Positions 2,896 to 52,917 are shown, counted from the stretch's first letter. The stretch is 64,000 nucleotides of DNA from Parcubacteria group bacterium Greene0714_7 (GCA_007378985.1 VMHB01000001.1:192252-256251); one strand, 5' to 3'. Numbers and translations are program-made. The notes: generated from the letters alone by a model not told the origin.

Positions 2896-4362
2896 ATGCT
2901 GGGATTTTTGAAAAAATCGACTGAACGATTACCTCTCTTTCTCTACAACACACTCTCTAAAACAAAAGAGGAATTTAAGACAATAAGTGGCAAAAAGGTA
3001 AAGATGTATACCTGTGGTCCCACGGTGTATGACTATGCACATATTGGAAATCTACGTGCCTACGTATTTGCTGATACGCTTCGGCGAACACTTGAATACG
3101 CTGGTCTCTCAGTGAAGCAGGTGATTAACATCACTGATGTTGGGCATCTGGCGCAGGATTCCGATGATGGAGAAGATAAGATGACCAATGCATTGAAGCG
3201 TGAAGGCAAAGAACTCACCATTCCGAACATGAAGCTTTTAGGAGAAAGCTACACTTCGCTTTTTATAGAAGACTTGAAGGCGCTCAATGTTGAAATGCCA
3301 TTCGTATTTCCACGAGCTACCGCACATATTCACGAGCAAATTGCATTTATTTCTTCGCTCTTTCAGAAAGGATATGCGTATAAAACCTCAGACGGCATAT
3401 ATTTTGATACAGCCAAGTTTCCGTCCTATGGTGCACTCGGTGTGTCTGACGGAGGACAGGCTTTGCCTTCTTTAGGTCAAGCACGCATAGTGGCAAACCC
3501 CGAAAAGCACGACCAGCGAGACTTCGCACTTTGGAAGTTTGATAGCTCTCTTGGTTTCGAAGCGCCGTGGGGAAAAGGGTTCCCCGGGTGGCACATTGAA
3601 TGTACTGCCATGGCAACCAAGTATCTTGGAAAAAGTTTTGATATACATACTGGTGGCGTTGATCACATTGCCATTCATCACAATAATGAAATTGCACAAG
3701 CAGAAGCAGTGTCGGGTAAAAGATTCGTGAACTATTGGATGCACGGGGAATTTATTACCATTGAAGGAAAACGCATTGGAAAGTCAGAAGGAAATGCGAT
3801 TCGCTTATATCAACTTCGTGAACGTAATGTAAGTCCAACTGCATATAGGTATTTATTGCTCACTGCTCATTACCGTTCGCTTTTGAATTTCACATGGGAA
3901 GCTGTACTTGGAGCGCAAACTGCACTTCAGAGGGCTCAACGCATGTTTGCGGATTTTCCAGCGGGTGGACATATTGCAACTCTCTATCGCACAAAGTTTG
4001 GGACGGCGATTAATGATGATTTGAATATACCAATCGCAATTGCGGTGATGTGGGAGCTTTTGAAAGATGATTCGGTTACACCTGCCGATAAGCGGGCGAC
4101 AATTCTCGATTTTGATCGTGTATTTGGGTTAGGCTTTGGTACAGGATCGCTTTCTGAGAGCTCTAAAGTTTCGGTCACTGCGTTATCTGATGTACCGACG
4201 GAGGTAGCGTCTTTGGTTAAAGAGCGTGAAGAGGCCAGGGGATCTAAGGATTGGGCACGCGCTGATGCACTAAGGCTTTCCATTGAAGAGCAAGGGTTTA
4301 CAGTTGAAGATGCCCCAGAAGGGCCGATCGTGCATAAAACGTCCGAAGGGTTTAAGGGATAG
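2896..4362 (+). CDS. cysS: Cysteinyl-tRNA synthetase
   Basis: Class I aaRS HIGN motif (AHIGNLRAY), a CysRS-like catalytic core and an anticodon-binding C-terminus. Confidence 0.9.
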   Translation: MLGFLKKSTERLPLFLYNTLSKTKEEFKTISGKKVKMYTCGPTVYDYAHIGNLRAYVFADTLRRTLEYAGLSVKQVINITDVGHLAQDSDDGEDKMTNALKREGKELTIPNMKLLGESYTSLFIEDLKALNVEMPFVFPRATAHIHEQIAFISSLFQKGYAYKTSDGIYFDTAKFPSYGALGVSDGGQALPSLGQARIVANPEKHDQRDFALWKFDSSLGFEAPWGKGFPGWHIECTAMATKYLGKSFDIHTGGVDHIAIHHNNEIAQAEAVSGKRFVNYWMHGEFITIEGKRIGKSEGNAIRLYQLRERNVSPTAYRYLLLTAHYRSLLNFTWEAVLGAQTALQRAQRMFADFPAGGHIATLYRTKFGTAINDDLNIPIAIAVMWELLKDDSVTPADKRATILDFDRVFGLGFGTGSLSESSKVSVTALSDVPTEVASLVKEREEARGSKDWARADALRLSIEEQGFTVEDAPEGPIVHKTSEGFKG

Positions 4363-6321: not shown

Positions 6322-6357
6322 CCTCTAAACACTATCATATATGATAGTGTTTAGAGG
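6322..6357. promoter_or_regulatory. 36-bp perfect palindrome (operator-like) ending at the start codon of the TrpR-like gene
   Basis: CCTCTAAACACTATCATATATGATAGTGTTTAGAGG. A TATAAA box lies about 6 nt upstream. Confidence 0.6.
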
Positions 6358-6786
6358 ATGAAGGTTAAACCAAAAAAACTCACAAAAGATCAAATTATTG
6401 AAACTCTTGATGCTTTATATACAGCGGCAGGGTCACTACGAGGGCGTGCCACTATGAAATTATTTCTTCGCGATCTTCTGACCGAAGGAGAGAGGGTGAT
6501 GCTTGGTAGACGCATTCTGATTGCAAGACATCTTTTACGGGGTGAAAGCTATATCAGTATTCAACGTACTCTTGGCACAAGTCCTGTAACAATACGAAAT
6601 GTAGAGAAATGGTTAGACGATCAAATGCCGGGGTACGAGACAGCGATTAAGGGTATGCAAGCAACTTTTGCAAAGCGAAAACAAAAAAGCGCATCCATTG
6701 GCACATTTGCTTACTTAAAGAAGCGTTACCCGTTGCACTTTCTCCTCTTTCCGTGGCCAAAAGGGTATCGTACGGAAGATCAGTAA
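6358..6786 (+). CDS. TrpR-like DNA-binding protein (YerC/YecD family), paralog 1
   Basis: Conserved family segment LYTAAGSLRGRATMKLFLRDLLTEGERVMLGRR. It is paralogous to the ORF at 52390-52782. Confidence 0.8.
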   Translation: MKVKPKKLTKDQIIETLDALYTAAGSLRGRATMKLFLRDLLTEGERVMLGRRILIARHLLRGESYISIQRTLGTSPVTIRNVEKWLDDQMPGYETAIKGMQATFAKRKQKSASIGTFAYLKKRYPLHFLLFPWPKGYRTEDQ

Positions 6787-6793
6787 TATAAAC

Positions 6794-6813
6794 CACTATC
6801 ATATATGATAGTG
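6794..6813. promoter_or_regulatory. 20-bp perfect palindrome with the same core as the upstream operator, between the TrpR-like gene and rarA
   Basis: CACTATCATATATGATAGTG. Confidence 0.5.
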
Positions 6814-8392: not shown

Positions 8393-8500
8393 ATGATGAG
8401 CGGATTTAAACTTAAATCAGAATATAGTCCTGCAGGGGACCCCAGTACCAGACGCTCTTGCGTCGGTACGGGGCAGGTCATCCTTCATATAAAAACATGA
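8393..8500 (+). other. 35-codon upstream ORF that repeats the UvrB N-terminus and contains hairpin module A. Its TGA overlaps the uvrB ATG (ATGA).
   Basis: The uORF begins MMSGFKLKSEYSPAGD. The real UvrB begins MSGFNLKSDYKPAGD. Most codons differ only at synonymous positions. Confidence 0.45.
8438..8477 (+). repeat. GC-rich hairpin module A of the GACCCCAGT...ACGGGGCAGG family
   Basis: GACCCCAGTACCAGACGCTCTTGCGTCGGTACGGGGCAGG. The outer stem is CCCC(A)GTACC/GGTACGGGG and the inner stem is GACGC-TCTT-GCGTC. Confidence 0.6.
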
Positions 8501-10581
8501 GTGGTTTTAATCTCAAATCTGACTACAAACCAGCTGGCGATCAACCGCGAGCCATCGAGGCGTTGGTTAAGGGTGTGAAAGACGGGGAGTCACATCAGAC
8601 ACTTCTTGGGGTTACCGGCTCGGGTAAAACATTCACTGTTGCAAATGTTATACAGCAGATTCAAAAGCCAACCTTAGTCATTGCACACAATAAAACACTC
8701 GCAGCGCAACTTACACAAGAGTATCGAGAATTTTTCCCTGAAAATGCGGTGCACTATTTTGTTTCTTACTACGACTACTATCAGCCAGAGGCATACATGC
8801 CGATGACTGATACCTACATTGAAAAAGAGGCTCAAATTAACGCTGAAATTGATCGTTTGCGCCATGCTTCTACTCAGGCACTTTTAACTCGGAGTGATGT
8901 CATTATTGTGGCATCCGTTTCCGCTATCTACGGTCTTGGTTCTCCTGAGCAATATAAAAGAGTCCATAGGAATATTAGGGTGGGTGAAAAATTCGAGCGT
9001 GCAGAATTTGTACGTGCTCTCATTGGGCTCCAGTTTGAGCGTACAAACGCCGACTTAACTCCGGGGACATTTAGAGCGGTAGGTGCGAACGTTGAGCTTA
9101 TGCCAGTCAATGAAGTAGCGGTGTACCGTATTCATCCAGAGCAAGGAAGAATCGCACACATTAGTAAGCTCAATGCTGTTTCCCGGGCTCTTGTTGACGA
9201 GCCAAAAGAATTTTTTCTTTTTCCTGCAAAACATTATGTTACCGATGAAGCTGATAGAGGAAGGGCGGTAGCAGATATACAAAAAGAACTTGATGTTCGT
9301 TTGGTCCAGCTTGAAGCTGAAGGAAAAATGCTGGAGGCAGAACGCCTGCGGAGGCGTACTCGCTACGACCTCGCCCTCATTCGTGAAATTGGATACTGCA
9401 ACGGCATTGAAAATTATTCTCGCCACTTTGATGGACGCAAAGCTGGAGAGCCTCCGTATACGCTTCTTTCGTATTTTCCACACAAAGCAGATGGAACGCC
9501 AGATTTCCTTACGGTCATTGATGAGTCACACGTCACTATTCCTCAGCTCCGTGCCATGTATGCAGGAGACCAGTCACGAAAAAAGATGCTGGTTGATTAC
9601 GGGTTTCGTTTGCCATCTGCTGCGGACAATCGCCCTTTAACATTTGCGGAATTTGAGAAAAGAGTTGGAGAAAAAGTGTATACCAGTGCAACGCCAGGAG
9701 TGTATGAGTTTGAGCATTCGGGTACACCAATCGAGCAAGTCATTCGACCTACGGGACTCATTGACCCTGAAATAATAATTCGCCCCGTAACGGGCACCAG
9801 TTCATCGAGTAGTCAGGTAGTTGATTTCATACAGGAGACCGTCTCGGTAGTAAAAGGAGGAGGGCGAGTGCTTGTCACTACACTGACGAAGAAGATGGCG
9901 GAAGACTTGTCGGAATTCTTAAAAGAAAAAAATATAAAAGCTGAGTATATTCATAGTGATATTAAAACGATTGACCGCATTACTATTCTCACTGAATTTC
10001 GCAAAGGGACCTTTGATTGCTTGGTTGGTGTGAACCTACTTCGTGAAGGGCTCGACCTACCTGAAGTTGAGCTTGTGGGAATACTTGATGCCGATAAGGA
10101 GGGATTTCTTCGCTCCGATACATCACTCATTCAGACTATTGGTCGCGCAGCTCGAAATGTTAATGGTCGGGTTATTCTCTATGCCGATGGAATGACTGGC
10201 TCTATGGAGCGTGCCATTGGAGAGACTAATCGTAGGCGTGCGGTACAGCTTGCCTACAATACAAAGCACGGCATCACACCAAAAACCATTCATAAGAACA
10301 TTAAAGACATTACGGAAACACTGCAATCAGAGAGAGCTGCGGCTATTACTATGCTTTTGGCAGTTGATGAGGATCGTACGCATGATCCTAAAGCCTTGAA
10401 GGCTCTTATTAGCGAGAAACGCCAGCAAATGGAAGATGCGGTTGAGGTTCTTGATTTTGAGACTGCCGCACTGCTGCGAGATGAGGTCTATAAACTTGAA
10501 GAAAAACTACCCGTGCCGAAAAAGCCTAAGCGTAAACCCAAATGGCCCAAGAAAGGTATGGTAATTGATTTAGAAGATTAG
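8497..10581 (+). CDS. uvrB: Excinuclease ABC subunit B
   Basis: UvrB helicase motifs (GVTGSGKTF, DESH) and a C-terminal UvrB/UvrC interaction helix. The start is taken at the MSGFNLKSDY Met, not the TTG of the ORF track. Confidence 0.9.
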   Translation: MSGFNLKSDYKPAGDQPRAIEALVKGVKDGESHQTLLGVTGSGKTFTVANVIQQIQKPTLVIAHNKTLAAQLTQEYREFFPENAVHYFVSYYDYYQPEAYMPMTDTYIEKEAQINAEIDRLRHASTQALLTRSDVIIVASVSAIYGLGSPEQYKRVHRNIRVGEKFERAEFVRALIGLQFERTNADLTPGTFRAVGANVELMPVNEVAVYRIHPEQGRIAHISKLNAVSRALVDEPKEFFLFPAKHYVTDEADRGRAVADIQKELDVRLVQLEAEGKMLEAERLRRRTRYDLALIREIGYCNGIENYSRHFDGRKAGEPPYTLLSYFPHKADGTPDFLTVIDESHVTIPQLRAMYAGDQSRKKMLVDYGFRLPSAADNRPLTFAEFEKRVGEKVYTSATPGVYEFEHSGTPIEQVIRPTGLIDPEIIIRPVTGTSSSSSQVVDFIQETVSVVKGGGRVLVTTLTKKMAEDLSEFLKEKNIKAEYIHSDIKTIDRITILTEFRKGTFDCLVGVNLLREGLDLPEVELVGILDADKEGFLRSDTSLIQTIGRAARNVNGRVILYADGMTGSMERAIGETNRRRAVQLAYNTKHGITPKTIHKNIKDITETLQSERAAAITMLLAVDEDRTHDPKALKALISEKRQQMEDAVEVLDFETAALLRDEVYKLEEKLPVPKKPKRKPKWPKKGMVIDLED

Positions 10582-15577: not shown

Positions 15578-15997
15578 GTGAACATTCACCTTACCGATAA
15601 AAAGTGTGTTGCATGCGAGGGAGGTATTCCGCCACTTATGGAAGCGGAAATTTTAACTTTCAAACCTCAAGTGCCCGCTTGGAACATAACCAGAACTGCT
15701 TCTGGTTTGTTCCGGTCCGATGAAATCGGAACGACCGATGCTCGGGCTTCGGAGCAGGTCGTAGGAGGAATAGTGGAATCCATCCCTCAATCAATTTCAC
15801 GAAAATTTGTATTTAAAGATTTCAAAGAGGCTCTTGCTTTCGTGGATAAGGTTGGTGCCATAGCTGAAGAAGAAGGACATCACCCTGATATGAATTTGTT
15901 TGGTTTCAAGAATGTACTCATTACACTTTCCACCCACGCAATAGGAGGTCTCTCTGAGAATGATTTTATTGTCGCTGCAAAAATTGATTTACTGTAA
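15578..15997 (+). CDS. Pterin-4a-carbinolamine dehydratase-like protein
   Basis: PCD/DCoH signature EEEGHHPD...HAIGGLSENDFIVAAKID. Confidence 0.7.
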   Translation: MNIHLTDKKCVACEGGIPPLMEAEILTFKPQVPAWNITRTASGLFRSDEIGTTDARASEQVVGGIVESIPQSISRKFVFKDFKEALAFVDKVGAIAEEEGHHPDMNLFGFKNVLITLSTHAIGGLSENDFIVAAKIDLL

Positions 15998-20621: not shown

Positions 20622-21767
20622 ATGTCACGGGTAAAAATTACGGAGTATAGAGCTAAGAAACTTATACTTGGGGACGCATATGCGGGTCGTTCCTTGTCGG
20701 GTATTTCTGATGTTGGGTTTACGAAACCCAACATGGTGGTGAAGGTTGATCAAGGGATTAAGAAGCGTTTTAAGCAGGGGCTTGTTGCGGTCAATGTTTC
20801 TTCAAAGGAGGCAGGGCAGAAAGTAAGGGAATGGGAAAAGCGAGGTTTTTCTCATTTTCTTGTTGAGCCGTATGTATCGCATGAGGAGTCTGAAGAGCAG
20901 TACCTTTTTTTAGAGCGGGTACGCACGGGGATACGAGTTCTACATGCTTCTTCGGGTGGTATTGATATCGAGGCACACCCAGAACTAGTGAAAACATATC
21001 TCATAAACCCGGCACTATCATATATGGTAGTGCCGGGCATCCCAGAAAAATTCTTGAAACATCTTGTGGAGGTGTTTGAAAAAAACTTTTTCTCTTTTCT
21101 TGAAATTAATCCACTTGTTGTTCGGGGAGATGAGGTATATATCCTCGATGCAGCGGTGCTCGTCGACAGCGCGGGAATATTTTTCGTCAAAAATGGATGG
21201 AACGAAGAAGACGTTGTTGAGGGAAAGGTACGACATATTGCTGAAGAAAAAGTACAGGCACTTCAAAAAACTACCCCTGCCTCCCTGAAACTCACCATTT
21301 TGCACCCTGATGGAGGTTTGTTTTTTCTGCTTTCAGGTGGTGGTGGAAGTATTGTTATTGCAGATGAGGCAGAACTTAATGGTGTGGGTCGCTCCATTGG
21401 TAATTATGGAGAATATAGCGGTGGTCCAACTCGAGAAGAAACACATCTCTACGCACGAGAGGTGATTCAGCTATTACTTAATTCACCTGCAAAGAAGAAG
21501 GCGCTCGTGATTGCTGGAGGTATTGCAAATTTTACTGATGTTAAGTCAACATTTAAGGGTATTGTTGATGCCTTGTCAGAGTGCGCGAGCACTCTTCGAG
21601 GAAAAGGTGTAAAAGTATTTGTGCGTCGTGGCGGACCGAATGAAATTGAAGGGCTTCTTTTTATGGAAGAGTATTTAAAAAAAGAAAAATTATTTGGTTC
21701 AGTGTATGGTTCTGGTGCAGTAATTACGAGTGCAGTTGATGATGCCATTGCATTTATAAAAAAATGA
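20622..21767 (+). CDS. aclB: ATP-citrate lyase beta subunit (ATP-grasp, SucC-like)
   Basis: Blocks match the N-terminal half of ATP-citrate lyase: VVKVDQGIKKRFKQGLVAVN, FLEINPLVV, ASLKLTILHPDGG, GNYGEYSGGP, ALVIAGGIANFTDVKSTFKGIV and VFVRRGGPN. Confidence 0.8.
   Translation: MSRVKITEYRAKKLILGDAYAGRSLSGISDVGFTKPNMVVKVDQGIKKRFKQGLVAVNVSSKEAGQKVREWEKRGFSHFLVEPYVSHEESEEQYLFLERVRTGIRVLHASSGGIDIEAHPELVKTYLINPALSYMVVPGIPEKFLKHLVEVFEKNFFSFLEINPLVVRGDEVYILDAAVLVDSAGIFFVKNGWNEEDVVEGKVRHIAEEKVQALQKTTPASLKLTILHPDGGLFFLLSGGGGSIVIADEAELNGVGRSIGNYGEYSGGPTREETHLYAREVIQLLLNSPAKKKALVIAGGIANFTDVKSTFKGIVDALSECASTLRGKGVKVFVRRGGPNEIEGLLFMEEYLKKEKLFGSVYGSGAVITSAVDDAIAFIKK
21011..21034. promoter_or_regulatory. 24-bp near-perfect palindrome inside aclB that matches the TrpR-like paralog-1 operator core (19/20)
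   Basis: GGCACTATCATATATGGTAGTGCC versus operator CACTATCATATATGATAGTG. Confidence 0.4.
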
Positions 21768-24257: not shown

Positions 24258-24323
24258 TTTCGACTCCATGACTCACTCAGAGCAAGCACCCGTGGACTAT
24301 TTTTCTAAACACTACAAAAGAGC

Positions 24324-24365
24324 CAGTATAGTATAAGTTAACGACCGTTAAATTATACTATACTG
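24324..24365. promoter_or_regulatory. 42-bp AT-rich near-palindrome P1 (20-bp arms, AC centre)
   Basis: CAGTATAGTATAAGTTAACG-AC-CGTTAAATTATACTATACTG. Confidence 0.5.
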
Positions 24366-24409
24366 ATTGAAACTGCTTTTATTTTAGAATTAATTTTTTA
24401 CTCAATTTT

Positions 24410-24721
24410 TTATTTGGCCTTTTTTAAAAATTTGACGCTCAAAGGTGAAATGTTTGGATAGAGGCGTGCTAATTCTGTCGGGTCAGATTTATACGGTGTG
24501 AATGCTTCAATAGTTGCATCTGATGCGGTGCCTGGTCCAAGCCATACAGTATCCCCACCTTCATCAGTATGTCTTTCAATGTGAAATACTCGGTAGACAA
24601 TGCCGGGGAAAAAATGAGGAGCAAGAGAAATAAAGTCTTGCGCTGAGAGGGCTCGTAGTTTCACCCGATCTCCTTTTTGAAGAAAGAGATGTTCAGGTTT
24701 TCGGTGGTCTTTTTCTGACAT
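24410..24721 (-). CDS. Hypothetical protein (103 aa) bracketed by palindromes P1 and P2
   Basis: The ORF is intact but has no recognisable domain. Confidence 0.45.
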   Translation of the reverse strand: MSEKDHRKPEHLFLQKGDRVKLRALSAQDFISLAPHFFPGIVYRVFHIERHTDEGGDTVWLGPGTASDATIEAFTPYKSDPTELARLYPNISPLSVKFLKKAK

Positions 24722-24797
24722 AGATGCCGTTTATTATATCATTTTGATTTTTTAACTCTTCAGTAATGTAATTTTTAAGTATTATTAACCAATTGCC

Positions 24798-24837
24798 TGT
24801 ATAGTATAATTTAACGACCGTTAAATTATACTATACA
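24798..24837. promoter_or_regulatory. 40-bp near-palindrome P2, same family as P1, in the divergent spacer between the 103-aa gene and the NUDIX gene
   Basis: TGTATAGTATAATTTAACG-AC-CGTTAAATTATACTATACA. Confidence 0.5.
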
Positions 24838-24876
24838 CCTTAATACTACTTAGCTTAGGCGGTATATAATAAAAAA

Positions 24877-25484: not shown

Positions 25485-25988
25485 TCACCACACCCATTTT
25501 ACTGATACAAAAGCAATTGCGAGAACACTAAGAAGTGTGATTCCTTGTAGTGCCATTAATATATATTTATGTGAACGTGCGACATGTGATTTTCTTTTAA
25601 GATATGCACGCCAACCTTGATGAATTAAAATTATATTCCCAGTTAGTGCAAAAATAAGTATTAATGCAGAGGTGTTGGTGGTGAACGCTAATGCGTCAAA
25701 CCCGTAGAGAGCTACACTCGCCCCCACTCCAACAAATAGTATGTCCAGTAGTGCATTTTCTGCATCCTCTACGAGGCCAGCCCCAAACTCAAGAGCTTCG
25801 TAGAGTACTGCTCCACCAGTGATTGCTATAAAAGCGTAGAGAGTGGACACCTCTAGAAACCACGCGAATGCTCCGAATGTTAATCCAGAAAATAGGTGCA
25901 CGAGCGACCAGAAATCAGCATAGCGACCATGCGCCCACCCGAAGTTTACGAGTTTTGAAGCTGTGCGTTCAAAGTTTAATTTCAGCAT
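25485..25988 (-). CDS. Hypothetical integral membrane protein
   Basis: Four or five predicted transmembrane helices. An SD-like GGGAGAAG precedes the chosen ATG. Confidence 0.5.
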   Translation of the reverse strand: MLKLNFERTASKLVNFGWAHGRYADFWSLVHLFSGLTFGAFAWFLEVSTLYAFIAITGGAVLYEALEFGAGLVEDAENALLDILFVGVGASVALYGFDALAFTTNTSALILIFALTGNIILIHQGWRAYLKRKSHVARSHKYILMALQGITLLSVLAIAFVSVKWVW

Positions 25989-26061
25989 CTTCTCCCTAGT
26001 ATACCTTTCCATCTTAAAATATCGTGGTATTCTTTGCGCGTATTCTAAAGAAGAAATACCT

Positions 26062-26580
26062 ATGGACGAAAAACAATTGAACGGGGAGATACGCACTGAA
26101 AAGACTCCACGCACGGTGTATTTTTTTGAGTACCTGACGCGTTGGACGGGTTCCATCCCATCATTGATTGTTCACACAATTCTTTTCGGTGGTGCTTTTG
26201 CTCTTGGGTTCTTTCATGTAGCTCCGTGGGATTCTGTGCTTTTGGTATTGACGACATTAGTTTCTTTAGAAGCAATCTATCTTTCTTTGCTCATACAAAT
26301 GACTGTCAATAGACACTCAGAAAGCTTGAAGGAGGTTGGAGAAGACGTTGAGGGGATTCAGGAAGACATTGAAGAAATTACCGAAGACGTTGAGGGAATT
26401 CAGGAAGACATTGAAGAAATTACCGAAGACGTTGAGGGAATTCAGGAGGATGTTGAAGAAATGACCGAAGAAGATGCTGAAGACGCAGAATTAGAAAAGC
26501 GTCATCTCGTGAGCCTAGAGCAGTTAACAAAAGATGTACAACGGGTTTTACAGGACTTGGAGAAATTCAAGAAACAGTGA
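26062..26580 (+). CDS. DUF1003-like membrane protein with an acidic C-terminal tandem repeat
   Basis: Two transmembrane helices (FGGAFALGFFHVAPW...) are followed by three copies of a 14-aa repeat VEGIQEDIEEITED. Confidence 0.55.
   Translation: MDEKQLNGEIRTEKTPRTVYFFEYLTRWTGSIPSLIVHTILFGGAFALGFFHVAPWDSVLLVLTTLVSLEAIYLSLLIQMTVNRHSESLKEVGEDVEGIQEDIEEITEDVEGIQEDIEEITEDVEGIQEDVEEMTEEDAEDAELEKRHLVSLEQLTKDVQRVLQDLEKFKKQ
26347..26472 (+). repeat. Three tandem copies of a 42-bp in-frame repeat inside the DUF1003-like gene
   Basis: GTTGAGGGAATTCAGGAAGACATTGAAGAAATTACCGAAGAC x3, with a few substitutions in copies 1 and 3. Confidence 0.8.
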
Positions 26581-30308: not shown

Positions 30309-30413
30309 ATGTCTCTCAAAGATATCAAACTCAAAATAAAATCTGTTGACCCCAGTCGTAGAGCTGGAACAGCTCACAACGGGGCAGGCCGTACTCACAT
30401 ACTATGTCGTTAA
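30309..30413 (+). other. 34-codon upstream ORF that repeats the AtpG N-terminus and contains hairpin module C. Its TAA overlaps codons 3-4 of atpG.
   Basis: The uORF begins MSLKDIKLKIKSVD, identical to AtpG residues 1-14, yet 8 of 14 codons differ at synonymous positions. Confidence 0.45.
30348..30388 (+). repeat. GC-rich hairpin module C of the GACCCCAGT...ACGGGGCAGG family
   Basis: GACCCCAGTCGTAGAGCTGGAACAGCTCACAACGGGGCAGG. The inner stem is GAGCTG-GAA-CAGCTC. Confidence 0.6.
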
Positions 30414-31321
30414 AGGATATTAAATTGAAAATAAAGTCCGTGGACAGAACACGGAAAGTTACGAAGGCAATGGAATCTGTTTCTGCGGTGAAGATGCGCA
30501 AAAGTCAGATACGCGCAATTACCTCGAGGCCCTACGCTTCTTCCGCGCTCTCCATTCTGGAGCGCATGAGTGTTTCTCTCGCGTCTCTTAAACATCCGTT
30601 AACTGTTGTGCGACCTGTCAAAAAAGCAGCAATAGTTGTGGTTACCAGCGACAAGGGACTCTGCGGCATATTAAATGCAGCTGTTGTGAAATCTGCCTAC
30701 ACTCTTGCAGAATCATTGGAACTCCCTCGTGAAGCAATTTCTATCTACGCTTTTGGACGCAAAGGGGCTGAGTTTTTTGATCGCCGTGGATATCAAATTT
30801 TAGGAAAGTTTGAAAACGTTTCTGACGATGTTTCTGTTGCTGACCTAGCTCTTGTCTCAAATGATATCGCCCGTGCATTTCTAAATAAAGAATTTGACCG
30901 TGTTGATGTTGTATATACCAACTTTAAATCTACGTTTGAGCAAAGTGCTATTGCCCATAAAGTACTTCCACTCTCCATTGAAACAGTATCTGAAATAGTG
31001 AGCGGTATTGTGCCAGTAAAAGGAAAGTTTGCTGTGGTAGAGCGAGTGAAAGGTCCTGCATCATACACGGCAGAGCCATCTACTGAAGTTGTCGTAGACG
31101 CCCTCATTCCACGCCTTGTCAGTGTACTTTTCTTCCACGCACTTTTGGAGTCAAAAGCGTCAGAGCATTCAGCTCGTATGGTTGCCATGAAGAATGCGTC
31201 AGATAAATCTCGAGATCTTTCTAAGCTACTGACAAGAAAATACAACAAAGCTCGTCAGGCGCTTATTACCAGAGAAGTTTCCGAGATTGTTGGAGGTATC
31301 GAGGCCATGGCAACGAGTTAG
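30404..31321 (+). CDS. atpG: F-type ATP synthase subunit gamma
   Basis: Gamma subunit N- and C-terminal coiled-coil helices (MSLKDIKLKIKSV...ITREVSEIVGG). Confidence 0.9.
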   Translation: MSLKDIKLKIKSVDRTRKVTKAMESVSAVKMRKSQIRAITSRPYASSALSILERMSVSLASLKHPLTVVRPVKKAAIVVVTSDKGLCGILNAAVVKSAYTLAESLELPREAISIYAFGRKGAEFFDRRGYQILGKFENVSDDVSVADLALVSNDIARAFLNKEFDRVDVVYTNFKSTFEQSAIAHKVLPLSIETVSEIVSGIVPVKGKFAVVERVKGPASYTAEPSTEVVVDALIPRLVSVLFFHALLESKASEHSARMVAMKNASDKSRDLSKLLTRKYNKARQALITREVSEIVGGIEAMATS

Positions 31322-40011: not shown

Positions 40012-40185
40012 GAATTGCTGATTGAAGTCGAGTGTTTCATACACTAACTAGCCAATTTTTTATTTAGGAGATATTAGAAAAAAGAAAAATGGAAACAGTG
40101 GGTTGATATAGTTCAACAAATAGGAAGTAGGGCAAAATAAATTAGGACCCTCTAATAATTAATGCCCCGTGTCTCCGAAAAACAC

Positions 40186-40227
40186 CTGTATAGTATAAAA
40201 TCACGGTCGTGATTTTATACTATACAG
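40186..40227. promoter_or_regulatory. 42-bp near-palindrome P3 (same family as P1/P2, with compensatory arm changes) upstream of ychF
   Basis: CTGTATAGTATAAAATCACG-GT-CGTGATTTTATACTATACAG. Confidence 0.5.
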
Positions 40228-40287
40228 GGTTTTAAATTTTTTTTTTAGGCTAGCCACTAAAGCCTAAACCCTATACACTGCTCCTTT

Positions 40288-41663: not shown

Positions 41664-42617
41664 ATGGATACAACAACTCAAGTTAAAGCCAAAGTTACTG
41701 CAAAAGACTTCTTTTTGTGGCTTGGCGCGATGGTCGCGCTGTATGTTTCAGCAACATCGCTCATTCTTTTAGTGCATCAGTATATAAATGTATTTTTTCC
41801 TAATGCCCTAGACTACGCAGCTTCGTACTCCAGTTCGATGCGATTCGCGATAGCGTCTCTCGTTGTGTTTTTCCCGCTCTATGTGTGGCTTACACGGATG
41901 CTCCACGAAGACATTCGGCACACACCTTTGAAGCAAGAACTCTGGGTTCGCAAATGGCTCATCTTTCTCACGCTCTTTGTTGCAGGTATAACCATGGCAA
42001 TCGATTTAGTGATGCTCGTCAATACATTCTTAAATGGTGATATAACAACTCGCTTCATCCTCAAGGCGCTCACAATACTCGTCGTTATTGGTGGTGGTTT
42101 TTGGTACTACCTTAATGAATTGAAAGGAAAGTGGGAGGAAAAGAAAAAAGAATCTACTGTTGTCGCTTTTGTTGTTTCTGGCATTGTCCTCGCAACGATA
42201 GTTAGCGCTTTCTTCATAATAGGCTCTCCACAAACGGAGCGTTTGGCACGCTTTGATGAGCAGAAAACTTATGATTTGCAGAGCATTCAGTGGCAGATAG
42301 TAAGTTACTGGCAACAAAAAGAAAAATTACCAGTAGGTATTTCAGATCTTGAAGATCCATTAACCGGCTTTGTTGCTCCGAAAGATCCTCAAACTGGAGC
42401 TTCATACACTTATGAGTCAACAGGCGCAATGTCATTTAAGCTTTGTGCCGATTTTAACGCACCAAGTCGCGACATGGTCGTGGATGGGAAAAGTAGACCT
42501 GCTGTTCCTCAGCCAGTAGGAAGTGAACTCGCTAATGAAAATTGGAAACACGACAAAGGCACTGTTTGTTTTGACCGAACCATTGATCCAGAGCGTTTTC
42601 CTGTTTTCAAGAAATAG
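41664..42617 (+). CDS. Hypothetical membrane protein (N-terminal multi-transmembrane region, C-terminal soluble domain)
   Basis: Four or five hydrophobic helices. No confident family assignment. Confidence 0.5.
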   Translation: MDTTTQVKAKVTAKDFFLWLGAMVALYVSATSLILLVHQYINVFFPNALDYAASYSSSMRFAIASLVVFFPLYVWLTRMLHEDIRHTPLKQELWVRKWLIFLTLFVAGITMAIDLVMLVNTFLNGDITTRFILKALTILVVIGGGFWYYLNELKGKWEEKKKESTVVAFVVSGIVLATIVSAFFIIGSPQTERLARFDEQKTYDLQSIQWQIVSYWQQKEKLPVGISDLEDPLTGFVAPKDPQTGASYTYESTGAMSFKLCADFNAPSRDMVVDGKSRPAVPQPVGSELANENWKHDKGTVCFDRTIDPERFPVFKK

Positions 42618-42653
42618 CTTTCAGCTTGGAGTTTTCAGTCGTATAATCCCTAC

Positions 42654-42755
42654 ATGGGAAGTTACGACCGCCCCAGTACCACCGGGCTCCGCATGGCTAC
42701 GGGGCAGGAAGTGGTTCGATATATAATCGTGTTTTTGACATTTTCAGTACCCTAA
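42654..42755 (+). other. 33-codon upstream ORF with a LeuRS-like start (MGSYD versus MQSYD) that contains hairpin module B and ends 6 nt before the leuS ATG
   Basis: ATG GGA AGT TAC GAC then CGCCCCAGT... The TAA lies at 42753. Confidence 0.4.
42666..42708 (+). repeat. GC-rich hairpin module B of the GACCCCAGT...ACGGGGCAGG family
   Basis: GACCGCCCCAGTACCACCGGGCTCCGCATGGCTACGGGGCAGG. Confidence 0.55.
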
Positions 42756-42761
42756 ATCTGC

Positions 42762-45173
42762 ATGCAATCATACGACCACAAAAAAATAGAGAAAAAATGG
42801 CGAAAGCTTTGGGAAGAGTCAGGTATTTACAAGACTAGTGAAAATTCATCAAAGCCAAAGCACTATGTTCTGGACATGTTTCCGTACCCATCGGCGTTAG
42901 GTCTTCACACTGGTCATGTTGAAGGGTATGCGGCGACCGATATTTACAGTCGTTTTAAACGAATGAAGGGGTTCAGTGTGCTCCATCCTATGGGATGGGA
43001 TGCGTTCGGTCTCCCTGCAGAAAACTATGCAATAAAAACAAATACGCCACCTCGAGAAACTACAAATAAGGCAATTGATAACTTCCGCAATCAAATCCAA
43101 CGCTTAGGCCTTTCGTATGACTGGTCACGAGAAATAGGCACTCACAATCCTGACTATTATAAGTGGACACAGTGGTTGTTTTTGTTCTTGTTTGAAAATG
43201 GTCTTGCGGAAAAACGCATGGGTAAGGTGAATTGGTGTCCCACCGACCAAACAGTGCTCGCCAATGAACAAACAGTGAGTGAGAGTGGAGAAAAGGGTGT
43301 GTGTGTTCGTTGCGGTACAAAAATAATTCAACGCGAACTTTCACAGTGGTTTTTCAAAATTACTGATTTTGCTGATGTATTAATTGATGATTTGAATGGT
43401 GTTGATTGGCCAGAGTCTACAAAAATAAATCAACGAAATTGGATTGGTAGAAAAGAAGGAGTCATTGTTACTCATAAAGTGAAAGGGCTGGATGTATCGC
43501 TCGACACGTTTAGTGCCTATCCTGCATGGCTTTTTGCGGATACCTATATGGTACTTGCTCCTGAGCACCCAATAGTAAAAACTCTTGTGGAAGGTACTGA
43601 AGTACAAAAGAGTGTTGAGGATTTTGTGAAGTGTATGCAGGAGGTCACAACGATTGATCGCACAAACGCAACAACGGAGAAAGAGGGTATTTTTACAGGA
43701 CGCTTCGCTATTGACTCTCTCTCCGGTAAAGAATTTCCTATTTGGATTGCTAACTTTGCTTTGATGGATTTTGGAACAGGTATTATTCGTTGCTCTTCAC
43801 ACGATATCCGCGACCTTACATTTGCTAAAAAATACGGAATCCCTTTGAGTGAGGTAGTCGAGAGAGAAAGTCCTGATATGCCCGTTGATGCCCATGCTAA
43901 TAAGGGTGTTTTGAAAGACTCGGGTCCGTTCACTGGTCGCACTATTAATAATGAGTTAATTCAAGAAATAATTGCGTGGATAGAAAGTAATGGATATGGG
44001 CATGCACAGACTACATACCGTCTTCGTGATTGGCTTATTTCTCGTCAACGATATTGGGGGGCGCCTATTCCAGTAGTGTATGACCCAGAAGGGAAAGCGC
44101 ATGGAGTTCCCAAAGAGCACTTGCCGTGGCTCCTTCCTGAAGATGTAGAGTATTTACCGAAGGGAACTTCACCGCTCGGAACCTCAAAGGAACTTTTGGA
44201 ACGAACAGAGAAAATATTTGGGAAAGGGTGGAAGCCAGAGATCGACACTATGGACACTTTCGTGTGTTCTTCGTGGTATTTTCTTCGATTTGCCGATCCA
44301 CATAATGAGATTGAGTTTGCGTCGAAAGAAGTAGTAAAAAAATGGCTTCCCGTTGACCTCTACATGGGAGGTGCTGAACATACAGTTTTGCATCTTATGT
44401 ACGCCCGCTTTATTACCAAGGCCCTGCAGAAGTTTGGATACATAGAGTTTGGTGAGCCATTCTCCAAGCTCCGTCACCAAGGGATGATTCTTGCTGAAGA
44501 TGGAACCAAGATGTCTAAGTCGAAAGGTAATGTCATAAACCCTGACGAAATTAGTGAACTCTACGGTGCGGACACGCTACGAATTTATGAAATGTTCATG
44601 GGTCCTCTTGAAGCTATGAAGCCATGGAGCACCAAAAATATTATTGGCTCACGGAGATTTTTGGAGCGTGTCTGGAGGGTACAAGAAAAGGTGAGTCAAG
44701 GTGCAACTTTGAGTGCAAGCGCTGATGCCACTCTACAGCAAACAATTAAAAAAGTAGCTGAAGATATCGAGCTCCTTAGTTTAAACACGGCAGTGAGTCA
44801 GATGATGATTTGTGTTAATGCTTTTGAAAAAGAAGAAAAAATACCTGCTGAAAGCTATGAGAGCATGCTGTTGGTACTTGCCCCGTTTGCACCTCATATG
44901 ACAGAAGAATTATGGGAAACTTTGGGTCATACTTCTTCAATTCATCAAGAAAATTGGCCAGTGTTTGATGAAAGTAAGCTCGAAAAAAATGAAGTAGTAA
45001 TGGCTGTTCAGGTTGGTGGGAAAGTAAAGGGCACCATTGTCATTCCTCGCGGAGCTACAGAAGAAGAAGTAATTGAGTTAGTACGAAAAGACGTCAAACT
45101 TGGTGGGGTAGTTCCTCAAAACCCATCCCGCATGATATTCGTTCCCAATAGGGTCGTTAACTTCATACCCTAG
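42762..45173 (+). CDS. leuS: Leucyl-tRNA synthetase
   Basis: HIGH-region equivalent (HTGHVEGY), KMSKS, and the CP1 editing and anticodon-binding domains. Confidence 0.95.
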   Translation: MQSYDHKKIEKKWRKLWEESGIYKTSENSSKPKHYVLDMFPYPSALGLHTGHVEGYAATDIYSRFKRMKGFSVLHPMGWDAFGLPAENYAIKTNTPPRETTNKAIDNFRNQIQRLGLSYDWSREIGTHNPDYYKWTQWLFLFLFENGLAEKRMGKVNWCPTDQTVLANEQTVSESGEKGVCVRCGTKIIQRELSQWFFKITDFADVLIDDLNGVDWPESTKINQRNWIGRKEGVIVTHKVKGLDVSLDTFSAYPAWLFADTYMVLAPEHPIVKTLVEGTEVQKSVEDFVKCMQEVTTIDRTNATTEKEGIFTGRFAIDSLSGKEFPIWIANFALMDFGTGIIRCSSHDIRDLTFAKKYGIPLSEVVERESPDMPVDAHANKGVLKDSGPFTGRTINNELIQEIIAWIESNGYGHAQTTYRLRDWLISRQRYWGAPIPVVYDPEGKAHGVPKEHLPWLLPEDVEYLPKGTSPLGTSKELLERTEKIFGKGWKPEIDTMDTFVCSSWYFLRFADPHNEIEFASKEVVKKWLPVDLYMGGAEHTVLHLMYARFITKALQKFGYIEFGEPFSKLRHQGMILAEDGTKMSKSKGNVINPDEISELYGADTLRIYEMFMGPLEAMKPWSTKNIIGSRRFLERVWRVQEKVSQGATLSASADATLQQTIKKVAEDIELLSLNTAVSQMMICVNAFEKEEKIPAESYESMLLVLAPFAPHMTEELWETLGHTSSIHQENWPVFDESKLEKNEVVMAVQVGGKVKGTIVIPRGATEEEVIELVRKDVKLGGVVPQNPSRMIFVPNRVVNFIP

Positions 45174-52351: not shown

Positions 52352-52395
52352 GACTGAGAAACTTATTTCCATATATGGAAATAAGTTTCTCAGTC
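52352..52395. promoter_or_regulatory. 44-bp perfect palindrome over the 3' end of the second TrpR-like gene. It is followed on the plus strand by a T-run, so it probably also terminates the Cas4-like gene.
   Basis: GACTGAGAAACTTATTTCCATATATGGAAATAAGTTTCTCAGTC followed by TAATTTTTTCTTTTTT. Confidence 0.6.
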
Positions 52396-52782
52396 TAATT
52401 TTTTCTTTTTTGGTTCTGGAAATAGAAGAAAATGCAACGGGTATTTGCGTTTAAGTGCTCTGAAAGAAAATGGACCATAGTTCGCCTCAAAAAGGTTTTC
52501 CCTCTTTTTGAATTCTTTATCCATGCTTTTGATTGCTTCCTCGAATCCAGGAAATTGATCTTGAAGCCATCGTTCTACTCGGTATATGGTTGCCAATCCA
52601 ACGCGTAGTTTTGTGGCGATGTCATTAGCTCGTTCGCCTTGGATAAGGAGTCGAGCTATCCAAATTCGCCTTCCAAGCATGATTCTCTCGCTTTCAGTGA
52701 GAAGATCGCGCAGGAAGAGTTTCATTGTGCTTCGTCCGCGAACTGATCCCGCTGCAGTGTAGAGAATATCTAGTGTTTTCAT
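52390..52782 (-). CDS. TrpR-like DNA-binding protein (YerC/YecD family), paralog 2
   Basis: MKTLDILYTAAGSVRGRSTMKLFLRDLLTESERIMLGRR matches paralog 1. A strong SD (AAGGAGGAG) precedes the internal ATG chosen as start. Confidence 0.8.
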   Translation of the reverse strand: MKTLDILYTAAGSVRGRSTMKLFLRDLLTESERIMLGRRIWIARLLIQGERANDIATKLRVGLATIYRVERWLQDQFPGFEEAIKSMDKEFKKRENLFEANYGPFSFRALKRKYPLHFLLFPEPKKKKLD

Positions 52783-52875
52783 TTTCTCCTCCTTTCCAAG
52801 GTCGCTAGATTTTCTTTTCATACTGAACATATTTTCATATATGGAAATATCTGCACGAAAACATGGTGTATAACT

Positions 52876-52917
52876 TCACTCACATGTATTTCCATATATG
52901 GAAATACATGTGAGTGA
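52876..52917. promoter_or_regulatory. 42-bp perfect palindrome in the divergent spacer between TrpR-like paralog 2 and the MGMT-like gene. An imperfect copy lies at 52849-52868.
   Basis: TCACTCACATGTATTTCCATATATGGAAATACATGTGAGTGA. The core TTTCCATATATGGAAA is shared with the 52352 palindrome. Confidence 0.6.

Follow-up and report, generated by a model that had tools for sequence, protein, structure and literature searches.

Integrative and conjugative elements of the SXT/R391 type, which reside in prfC, and islands with a dusA-specific integrase integrate at the start of a gene, the 5′ end of which they replace with one of their own. Homing endonuclease genes, introns, and inteins bring about co-conversion of the flanks of their insertion sites, and homology-facilitated illegitimate recombination is known in naturally transformable bacteria. 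Repetitive extragenic palindromes (REPs), in turn, are to our knowledge not known to drag gene starts along. Here, we describe a locus that recalls parts of all these systems, located in a stretch of 64,000 nucleotides (nt) from Parcubacteria group bacterium Greene0714_7 (GCA_007378985.1 VMHB01000001.1:192252-256251), which we call the window. The window lies on a 292-kb contig, and all sequences compared in this study are metagenome assemblies. At the locus, termed site B, the start of leuS, encoding leucyl-tRNA synthetase (LeuRS), is preceded by a second, orphaned leuS start, a conserved hairpin, and a spacer. We favor, with a probability of roughly 60%, the view that site B arose by hairpin-anchored replacement of the leuS 5′ end by horizontally acquired DNA.

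As in SXT/prfC-type islands, the native 5′ end is displaced upstream, a synonymously diverged 5′ end borne by the incoming DNA is functional, and the gene is left intact. However, those islands measure 10 to 100 kb, carry an integrase, and have a fixed att core at both junctions, whereas the two copies described here lie 36 to 230 nt apart with no gene in between, with one junction at the foot of the hairpin and the other homologous and variable. Homing elements likewise occupy an exact position of a conserved gene in some genomes and not in others, with co-import of donor flank and a gene that stays functional, but here there is neither endonuclease nor splicing, co-conversion is one-sided, and function is kept by a duplicated start instead of by removal of the insert. 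Homology-facilitated illegitimate recombination shares the one-sided homologous anchor and the non-homologous join that traps foreign DNA; it differs in that the non-homologous end considered here is invariably placed at one and the same nucleotide of a conserved hairpin. In the literature on the motif, on repeats and MITEs (miniature inverted-repeat transposable elements) of the candidate phyla radiation (CPR), on REP-associated tyrosine transposases (RAYTs), and on illegitimate recombination, we found no description of hairpin-anchored 5′-end replacement. The parts are known in kind, as small palindromic mobile repeats and as integrative elements that replace 5′ ends, while their combination in CPR bacteria is apparently new, with a substantial chance that it reflects a distinct mechanism.

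Two starts of leuS flank an inserted hairpin

The first-pass annotation, drawn from the sequence of the window alone, had listed at site B a TATAAT box, an upstream open reading frame (uORF), a hairpin, a uORF stop shortly before the leuS ATG, and differing Ser codons in the two starts, all of which we could confirm in place (Table 1). From position 42640 to 42780, the locus reads cg TATAAT ccctac ATG GGA AGT TAC GAC CG CCCCAGTACCACCGGGCTCCGCATGGCTACGGGGCAGG aagtggttcgatatataatcgtgtttttgacattttcagtaccc TAA atctgc ATG CAA TCA TAC GAC CAC AAA.... Ser is encoded by AGT in the uORF and by TCA in leuS, TAC GAC is the same in both copies, and two extra bases (CG) stand between GAC and the hairpin at the left junction. 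The hairpin itself is composed of CCCC, a bulged A, GTACC, a second bulged A, a variable stem-loop, GGCTAC, and GGGG, followed by an unpaired CAGG tail.

The LeuRS proteins of the closest relatives are 94, 83, 82, and 77% identical to that of the window, and the leuS loci of all four are empty. A covariance model of the hairpin (R1) detects no copy in any of the relatives' leuS loci, and leuS, which follows the DUF5671 gene at a distance of 144 nt in the window, does so at only 36 to 58 nt in the relatives (L122 to L126). Empty sites read TATAAT-N6-ATGGGTAGTTACGAC-CAT..., with the protein start MGSYDHKKIEKKW; at the L122 locus (...cgtataatccctat ATGGGTAGTTACGAC CATAAAAAAATAGAG, translated as MGSYDHKKIEKKW), the start runs directly into CAT AAA AAA ATA GAG. 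The comparison thereby shows an insertion polymorphism, and the earlier reading of the module as an inserted unit is borne out by the empty-site relatives, which lack 108 nt whose boundaries in the window slide within the repeated TACGACC. The same holds for the N-terminal repeat, which is a true duplication with a layout common to uvrB (site A), leuS (site B), and atpG (site C); a repeat of five codons, as at leuS, is weak evidence when taken alone and is validated here by the empty-site alleles. The TATAAT box goes with the upstream copy, as had been noted, and is kept in the empty-site relatives L122 and L123, which both read TATAAT-ccctaY-ATG. Because the empty-site relatives read the upstream copy as the true start, the start of the "uORF," together with its TATAAT box, is the original leuS start, which was probably leaderless. 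The downstream start, MQSYD, occurs in none of 120 LeuRS homologues.

Aligned with L122, leuS of the window is 73, 78, 98, 93, 98, 95, and 96% identical in successive segments of 60 nt, with dense differences up to nt 84, a single one at nt 99, and near-identity after that. The first 100 nt have diverged from L122 by 27%, compared with only 3.3% between nt 100 and 400, where the divergence from the outgroup L123 is 22%; nt 15 to 100 differ by 22 to 27% from L122 and equally from L123. The flank upstream of the insert is 90 to 100% identical to L122, and the right boundary of the divergent tract lies within homology, between nt 84 and nt 99 to 143 of the gene. Given these steps in identity along leuS and the intact upstream flank, the DNA from the hairpin to about codon 30 is foreign: the comparison shows a tract that comes from a relative about 25% diverged, begins at the hairpin foot, and ends in homology by homologous exchange near codon 30. 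leuS itself is then a chimera of an imported 5′ end, which runs ATGCAATCATACGAC...AAGCTTTGGGAAGAGTCAGG, and a resident body, and the spacer ahead of the new ATG is presumably the donor's region upstream of leuS.

Two observations on leuS stand apart from the insertion. First, 3′ of the tract, the alignment with L122 is a mosaic in which blocks of 70 to 81% identity alternate with blocks of 95 to 100%, and homologous exchange with diverged relatives therefore appears to be frequent in this lineage. Second, in an unrelated lineage (L182/L183), an inverted repeat (CCCCGTAGGAAAT ...~200 nt... ATTTCCTACGGGG) precedes leuS and ends 1 nt 5′ of the ATG; its arms resemble the hairpin arms minus the bulged A, and R1 gives a weak match elsewhere in L182 (16.6 bits).

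uvrB and atpG share the architecture and the polarity of leuS

At uvrB, the N-terminal repeat reads MMSGFKLKSEYSPAGD and then MSGFNLKSDYKPAGD. The uvrB locus of L184 is empty and has an identical upstream flank; of the two window copies, the first departs from it at 4 nt and the second at 14. Identity to L184 in successive segments of 45 nt is 68, 84, 93, and 100%, and the foreign tract runs about 12 nt beyond the repeat. When the two copies are compared with each other, their 15 codons hold nine synonymous and three non-synonymous changes. The last 5 nt before the hairpin are GGGAC in the window and GAGAT in the relative, and since L184 natively has GAT as its junction codon, the final base of the window's "GAC" is better assigned to the hairpin, where it opens the CCCC. 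At atpG, in the atp operon, MSLKDIKLKIKSVD occurs twice, with 10 nt differences in 14 codons, all of them synonymous. The loci of L127 and L128 are empty, and copy 1 of the window differs from L127 at 3 of 42 nt, as against nine for copy 2; the differences overrun the repeat by 9 nt (AGAACACGG versus CGTACTCGT) and then cease. Both genes hence show the leuS architecture with the same polarity, an upstream copy that is native and a downstream copy that is foreign. Since the spacers of the three window copies are mutually dissimilar, the hairpin alone being common to them, we regard the spacers as flanking DNA of the donor that does not belong to the element.

These comparisons bear on the simplest account of the repeats, namely, an insertion that created a target-site duplication of 15 to 45 bp, the copies of which then diverged in place. 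The repeats do directly flank the insert, and TACGACC is identical at both ends of the leuS insertion. Nevertheless, local duplication is very unlikely: the upstream copy fits the relatives and the downstream copy does not, the divergence continues past the repeat into unique gene sequence, the differences are nearly all synonymous although one copy would have been free to decay, and insertions of the hairpin alone (see below) lack a target duplication. The mostly synonymous differences between copies instead indicate two functional orthologues and not a decaying duplicate. As for the annotation of atpG (30404-31321), one public record begins the gene at codon 13 (293 amino acids [aa], MDRTRK..., versus 305 aa), probably a misannotated start due to the duplication.

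Table 1. Features of sites A, B, and C (window positions) and start duplications in other CPR genomes (locus handles)
Feature	Position or locus	Strand	Description
Site B: native leuS -10 box TATAAT	42642..42647	+	6 nt before native ATG (-12 to -7), leaderless-type spacing
Site B: native leuS codons 1-5 (MGSYD), orphaned	42654..42668	+	1 nt off ATGGGTAGTTACGAC of L122
Site B: uORF, 33 codons + stop	42654..42755	+	native start fused to read-through of hairpin and spacer; stop TAA 42753-42755, 6 nt 5′ of leuS ATG at 42762
Site B: 108 nt missing from empty-site alleles	42669..42776	+	CG + hairpin + spacer + ATG CAA TCA TAC GAC
Site B: conserved hairpin CCCCAGTACC...GGCTACGGGGCAGG	42671..42708	+	motif, covariance model
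Site B: apparently imported spacer, 53 nt	42709..42761	+	carries TATAAT 42722-42727; dissimilar to site A and C spacers
Site B: imported leuS 5′ end	42762..42860	+	new ATG (MQSYD) + ~85-100 nt foreign coding sequence; identity versus L122
leuS, 803 aa	42762..45173	+	Pfam tRNA-synt_1, Anticodon_1; ORF list
Site A: uvrB	8393..8556	+	orphaned start ATGATG...GGGGAC up to 8440, followed by hairpin (8440-8477), spacer of 19 nt, and new ATG (8497); foreign to ~8556
Site C: atpG (atp operon)	30309..30454	+	orphaned 14-codon start (to 30350), hairpin 30350-30388, 15-nt spacer, new ATG 30404, foreign to ~30454
rplX	L064		MKLKKGD / hairpin / MKIKKGD
smpB	L065		MSLVEN / hairpin / MSLIEN
lepA	L116		NNIPNFCIIAH / hairpin / MNNIRNFCIIAH
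gatB	L120		start duplication with hairpin
Epimerase-like gene	L044		junction within Thr codon
	L050		~60 nt of promoter/5′ untranslated region + ATGGC duplicated

Hairpin-linked start duplications recur in other CPR genomes

Among the matches listed, the start duplication is found in at least six other, unrelated CPR genomes, all of them metagenome-assembled genomes (MAGs) (Table 1), so that recurrence is seen across genes as well as genomes. In all nine clear cases, the hairpin points in the direction of the gene and begins 0 to 2 nt after the upstream copy ends. The copies are 36 to 230 nt apart, separated by the hairpin and a spacer of 15 to 169 nt only, and in seven of nine comparable cases the distance from the uORF stop to the new start is at most 20 nt. 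The triplet before the hairpin is GAC, AAC, CAC, xAC, or TTC, and hence not a fixed Asp codon. The first-pass annotation had suggested that an Asp codon GAC shared by both copies may be the target site or junction and proposed that its invariance be checked at the 5′ junctions of further copies. This idea does not survive the comparison: the downstream uvrB copy has GAT, as does the native codon of the closest relative, and other genomes show AAC, CAC, AC within a Thr codon, and TTC. The implied role of the repeat as a target-site feature of the element fares no better, as the downstream copies are foreign and extend 9 to 85 nt past the repeat into the gene.

The recurrence also speaks to the quality of the assemblies, in which two strain variants of the leuS start could in principle have been joined at a repeated hairpin k-mer. 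Metagenome assemblies were used throughout, and the mosaic divergence of leuS implies that recombining strains exist. Even so, an assembly artefact is hardly credible, given three loci with precise junctions on one 292-kb contig, the same architecture in MAGs from independent studies and assemblers, the presence of the LeuRS protein on three contigs of different length classes, and a spacer that is unique, with no strain variant of nearby sequence.

The hairpin belongs to a conserved family with REP- and MITE-like behavior

Within the window, CCCCAGTACC-N17-TACGGGGCAGG occurs twice (at 8440 and 42671), compared with 0.00 occurrences expected, and the looser pattern CCCC..GT...AC..GGGG followed by CAGG adds the third copy, at 30350-30388. 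An unfiltered covariance-model scan of the window returns exactly three copies, scoring 43.8 to 54 bits, with the next best hit at 8.8 bits. An additional 9 kb of flank contains no further hairpin, which makes three copies in about 73 kb; positions 15745, 23655, 59404, and 63760, considered as third copies, are chance partial matches. A genome-collection scan with one genome per species and the pattern CCCCAGT-N15-35-ACGGGGCAGG gave at least 120 loci, many of which were discarded as chance matches in high-GC coding DNA, one recurrent group being a conserved gene (L013, L030, L089, and others). The loci listed contain two hairpin groups: CPR/Patescibacteria copies laid out as those of the window and a 33-nt variant found in Desulfobacterales and others, often in tandem or in REP-like clusters (L048, L087). 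Viral contigs hold few true hairpins, only of the Desulfobacterales type, and give no enzyme clue.

The CPR consensus, derived from 23 copies, consists of CCCC, a bulged A, GTASY, a bulged A, a variable stem-loop, RSTAC, GGGG, and CAGG(C). In the alignment of these copies, a bulged stem of 14 bp has 92% of its cells paired, compared with 33 to 42% in slid controls. Eight of the 14 pairs show compensatory changes, and only 2 of 316 cells are G-U; the search pattern dictated the anchoring bases, and the covariation sits in the inner helices. The scarcity of wobbles, together with the conserved bulges and the unpaired tail, would be more in keeping with a protein that recognizes a folded DNA strand than with a role as RNA. 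Only tRNAs pass the Rfam gathering thresholds in the whole window, and at an E value of up to 10 the best hit in 42550-42850 reaches 14 bits against a threshold of 70, with no family match.

A regulatory or recoding function would be the obvious alternative for a uORF directly 5′ of an aminoacyl-tRNA synthetase gene, the stop of which lies near the main start, and the GAC before the hairpin, which returns at the end of the second copy, could be read as a pair of matched codons. The module would then be a leucine attenuator, a T-box-like leader, or a bypass or intron-like element between matched GAC codons. We consider this highly improbable. T-box is among the families searched in Rfam at an E value of up to 10, no terminator-like T-run follows the hairpin, and 2 of the 33 uORF codons specify Leu, all of which sets site B apart from T-box leaders and leader attenuators. 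The downstream ORF starts with an ATG of its own and lacks nothing of its N-terminus, and the uvrB codons are GAC and GAT, unlike in translational bypass (T4 gene 60, mitochondrial byps). Moreover, the identical hairpin type is found at uvrB, at atpG, and within unrelated ORFs, while close relatives do without it.

The hairpin also occurs on its own. It lies in frame within dnaG (L021) and further ORFs (L039, L055), has entered tRNA fragments as clean insertions of 43 nt with no target duplication (L017, L068), and is present in intergenic DNA. The base that precedes it in 88 well-folding copies is A in 50% and G in 28%, and 6 of the 88 lie in the loop of a larger palindrome, a modest enrichment over about 1.6% in controls. 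By itself, the hairpin is best classed as REP/MITE-like. The first-pass annotation had held that copies without an N-terminal repeat would reduce the module to a generic REP-like element; such copies do exist, and this part of the statement stands for the hairpin alone, but the attached 5′-end replacement recurs and is not generic.

Like REPs, REP doublets forming hairpins (REPINs), and palindromes derived from IS200/IS605 insertion sequences, the hairpin is a short imperfect palindrome with conserved bulges, non-autonomous, without target duplication, and likely handled as single-stranded DNA (PMC3116915, PMC2817692, PMC3733652). It has the size expected of a REP, a foldable palindrome of 20 to 45 nt, and like REPs and REPINs it is clustered or in tandem in some genomes (Desulfobacterales, L048 and L087). 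Unlike REPs, it lacks a GTAG/CGTC end tag and has the ends CCCCAGT and ACGGGGCAGG, GTAG being found only inside the second helix of some copies. It also differs in its low copy number and in that the three copies in 64 kb all lie within former coding sequence, as single hairpins and not as inverted doublets. Pfam finds no RAYT or TnpA among about 55 ORFs of the window, which represents about a quarter of the 292-kb contig. Compared with IS200/IS605 elements, there is no duplication at hairpin-only insertions, there is one hairpin only, and the 5′ flank is merely A-rich. In being tolerated in frame within ORFs (dnaG of L021, L039, and L055), the hairpin alone resembles the Rickettsia palindromic elements and other small intragenic repeats (PMC2229807), whereas at leuS, uvrB, and atpG the insert is not read into the protein and a new start is supplied.

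Several of the loci with hairpins in tRNA fragments have a complex structure of their own. At about 3000-3340 of L068 (minus strand), an intact tRNA-Leu(CAG) is preceded by three nested 5′ fragments of the same tRNA, every one of which breaks off in the anticodon loop, at TTCA|CCCCGCAC..., and the oldest holds the hairpin in its D-loop. The nested fragments look like the product of serial 5′-end replacement without a hairpin. L017 has, at 3250-3960, a tRNA-Val and a partial duplicate, with two hairpins in opposite orientation in the tRNA-Val fragments, and a small GIY-YIG ORF (3532-3765, minus strand) between copies of a 55-nt repeat (3346-3400 and 3780-3836). In L107, a homologue of this GIY-YIG gene is situated at a distance of about 120 nt from a hairpin.

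A model for hairpin-anchored 5′-end replacement

For leuS, the comparisons show the following course of events. The ancestor had TATAAT-N6-ATG GGN AGT TAC GAC CAY AAA..., encoding MGSYDHKK, and the incoming segment ran from the 5′ foot of the hairpin through the donor's leuS upstream region and ATG into its first ~30 codons. Its left end was joined after resident codon 5 (TACGAC|CG-CCCCAGT) and its right end resolved by homologous recombination within codons ~29 to 35. As a result, the native promoter and ATG now head a uORF of 33 codons, and LeuRS would be made from the imported ATG (MQSYD...).

More generally, the hairpin of about 38 to 45 nt may be the mobile or recombinogenic unit, a non-autonomous REP/MITE-like element on which an enzyme encoded at some other place probably acts while the DNA is single-stranded and folded, and it would set the 5′ end of whatever strand or element comes in. 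As this 5′ end is precise whereas no 3′ end is defined, the DNA to the right of the hairpin can be understood as donor flank carried along by one-ended transfer, including the start codon and sometimes the promoter. The left end would join, in a site-specific or end-defined manner at the hairpin foot, in the first codons or the 5′ untranslated region of the resident gene, with RecA-type recombination completing the right side, a landing that would not be lethal in essential genes, as the import brings a working start; that surviving intragenic cases near starts all carry the duplicate would follow if only products with a working start survive. The left join might be catalyzed, e.g., by an HUH-type single-strand nuclease/ligase, or be a by-product of end protection in transformation. 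In its most explicit form, which we put forward only tentatively, the hairpin marks the 5′ end (origin) of an undescribed kind of mobile single-stranded DNA that moves from one CPR genome to another by one-ended transfer, carries donor gene starts, has its foot joined to the first codons of the recipient's orthologue, and is resolved on the other side by homologous recombination.

How the gene is expressed after such an event can be sketched from the gene starts of the window, 53 of 54 of which lack a Shine-Dalgarno (SD) sequence, while many have a TAnnnT hexamer ending 4 to 10 nt before the ATG; this suggests that leaderless mRNAs are widespread. The native promoter should accordingly still produce an mRNA starting at the uORF AUG, and LeuRS would probably be expressed by read-through from the native promoter and termination-reinitiation at the uORF stop, from the imported TATAAT at 42722-42727, or from both. 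Termination-reinitiation is compatible with the data because the uORF stops close to the new start in seven of nine cases.

Several points weigh against replacement by an incoming element. TACGACC is present at both ends of the leuS insertion, next to the extra CG, and a 7-bp target duplication is compatible with the leuS site taken alone. Pfam searches of about 55 window ORFs and of 9 kb of flank found no transposase (HUH/Y1 or IS91-type), tyrosine or serine recombinase, or reverse transcriptase, and no gene family recurs within 1.2 to 1.5 kb of the hairpin at more than 100 loci when ORFs of at least 80 aa, and then of at least 55 aa, are clustered. The search for the lineage that donated the leuS tract was unsuccessful, a back-translated pattern run against metagenomes giving only an unrelated lineage, and no consensus sigma-70 promoter or terminator was called in 42400-42900. 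The donor may, moreover, have had the hairpin in plain intergenic DNA or may already have had the full duplicated architecture. Finally, a passive hairpin, acting as an exonuclease barrier or end-protecting structure in transformation, suits the junction data as well. With respect to candidate enzymes, small GIY-YIG genes lie near hairpins in L017 and L107 only and none is present in the window; mutagenesis of the kind driven by diversity-generating retroelements was rejected, the substitutions between copies not being adenine-specific.

The passive account deserves the closest attention. In it, an ordinary intergenic REP-like palindrome, which plays no part in transposition here, is contained in DNA that comes in by natural transformation and is trimmed back to the stable hairpin; homology-facilitated illegitimate recombination then uses homology in the gene body and joins the left end upstream by microhomology (..AC / ..GA), and only joins with a working start survive. 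Competence genes are common in CPR bacteria. Homology and variability are evident at the right junction, the left join shares at most 1 to 7 nt, GGGAC at uvrB in place of the relative's GAGAT would fit a join located slightly (a few nt) farther upstream, and the searches of the window and of hairpin neighbors yielded no enzyme. We nevertheless regard this account as rather unlikely, since the left end falls at the same hairpin nucleotide (within 0 to 2 nt) in nine of nine clear cases, which is tighter than exonuclease trimming would give. In addition, hairpin-only insertions without donor flank exist (L017, L068, and L021), and the sequence of the hairpin base, bulges, and tail is conserved across phyla, suggesting recognition by a specific protein.

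Alternatively, the hairpins could be the remnant or docking site of a larger integrative element or integron-like platform in the gene's 5′ end, the cargo having been lost through recombination between hairpin sites so that the hairpin and the right end are left. The order of native 5′ end, element, element-borne 5′ end, and gene is the architecture of islands that target 5′ ends, and the nested tRNA-Leu fragments of L068 resemble serial integrations. The hairpin also has an attC-like layout of two stems, two extrahelical bases on one strand (bulged A residues in columns 8 and 14 of the 5′ arm), and a variable apical stem-loop. The likeness to attC is one of layout only, because the R''/R' cores (RYYYAAC...GTTRRRY) are missing from the hairpin alignment. 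A remnant becomes quite improbable when the short span of all nine cases, hairpin and spacer alone, is considered along with the lack of an integrase or cargo near any copy examined and a right junction that has no fixed core and lies 9 to 85 nt past the repeat, in homology. Insertion of an incoming 5′ end anchored by the hairpin accordingly remains our preferred reading of site B.

Other repeats and palindromes in the window

The window contains further palindromic sequences besides the hairpin family. In the ORF for a pterin-4a-carbinolamine dehydratase (15578-15997), the Pfam match extends from residue 72 only, and a GC-rich double palindrome (15695-15765, residues ~40 to 65; folding z = -2.9) without an R1 match looks like the in-frame insertion of a different hairpin element. 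Two Trp_repressor-family genes, at 6358-6786 (+) and 52390-52830 (-), each lie between perfect palindromes of 23 to 24 nt about 465 nt apart (regions 6327-6813 and 52360-52906), and the palindrome is found again at 21010-21032. In the related genome L187, the PDDEXK_1 and DNA_binding_1 genes adjoin with no Trp_repressor-family gene between them, and the Trp_repressor-family unit may, judging from these arrangements, be a mobile palindrome-flanked cassette. A near-perfect palindrome of ~45 nt, GCCAGTATAGTATAAGTTAACGACCGTTAAATTATACTATACTG (z = -8.5), is present at 24322-24378, 24795-24851, and 40184-40240, the first two copies flanking the ORF 24410-24721. CCTAAA-rich motifs (families D5 and D6) lie upstream of several window genes, and a 21-nt tandem repeat with six or more units (26320-26476) is part of an ORF for a coiled-coil DUF948-like protein (25963-26580).

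Implications for CPR genomes

In 64 kb of a streamlined genome, three housekeeping genes, leuS, uvrB, and atpG, appear to have had their starts replaced via one hairpin, a pattern that indicates a specific path of horizontal exchange, apparently undescribed so far, by which the first codons of essential genes are affected. If the tentative reading as single-strand mobile DNA is true, self-splicing introns and inteins would be joined by a third means for a selfish element to occupy an essential gene harmlessly, namely, a replacement start, and gene starts and promoters would be exchanged between streamlined genomes. On the practical side, duplicated starts mislead gene callers, as at atpG, and orphaned starts make uORFs. 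The hairpin family, which is cross-phylum, backed by covariation, and not in Rfam, provides a handle on the protein that would recognize it. Lastly, should the orphaned leaderless start drive the new start by termination-reinitiation, these loci would constitute natural experiments in gene expression without SD sequences.

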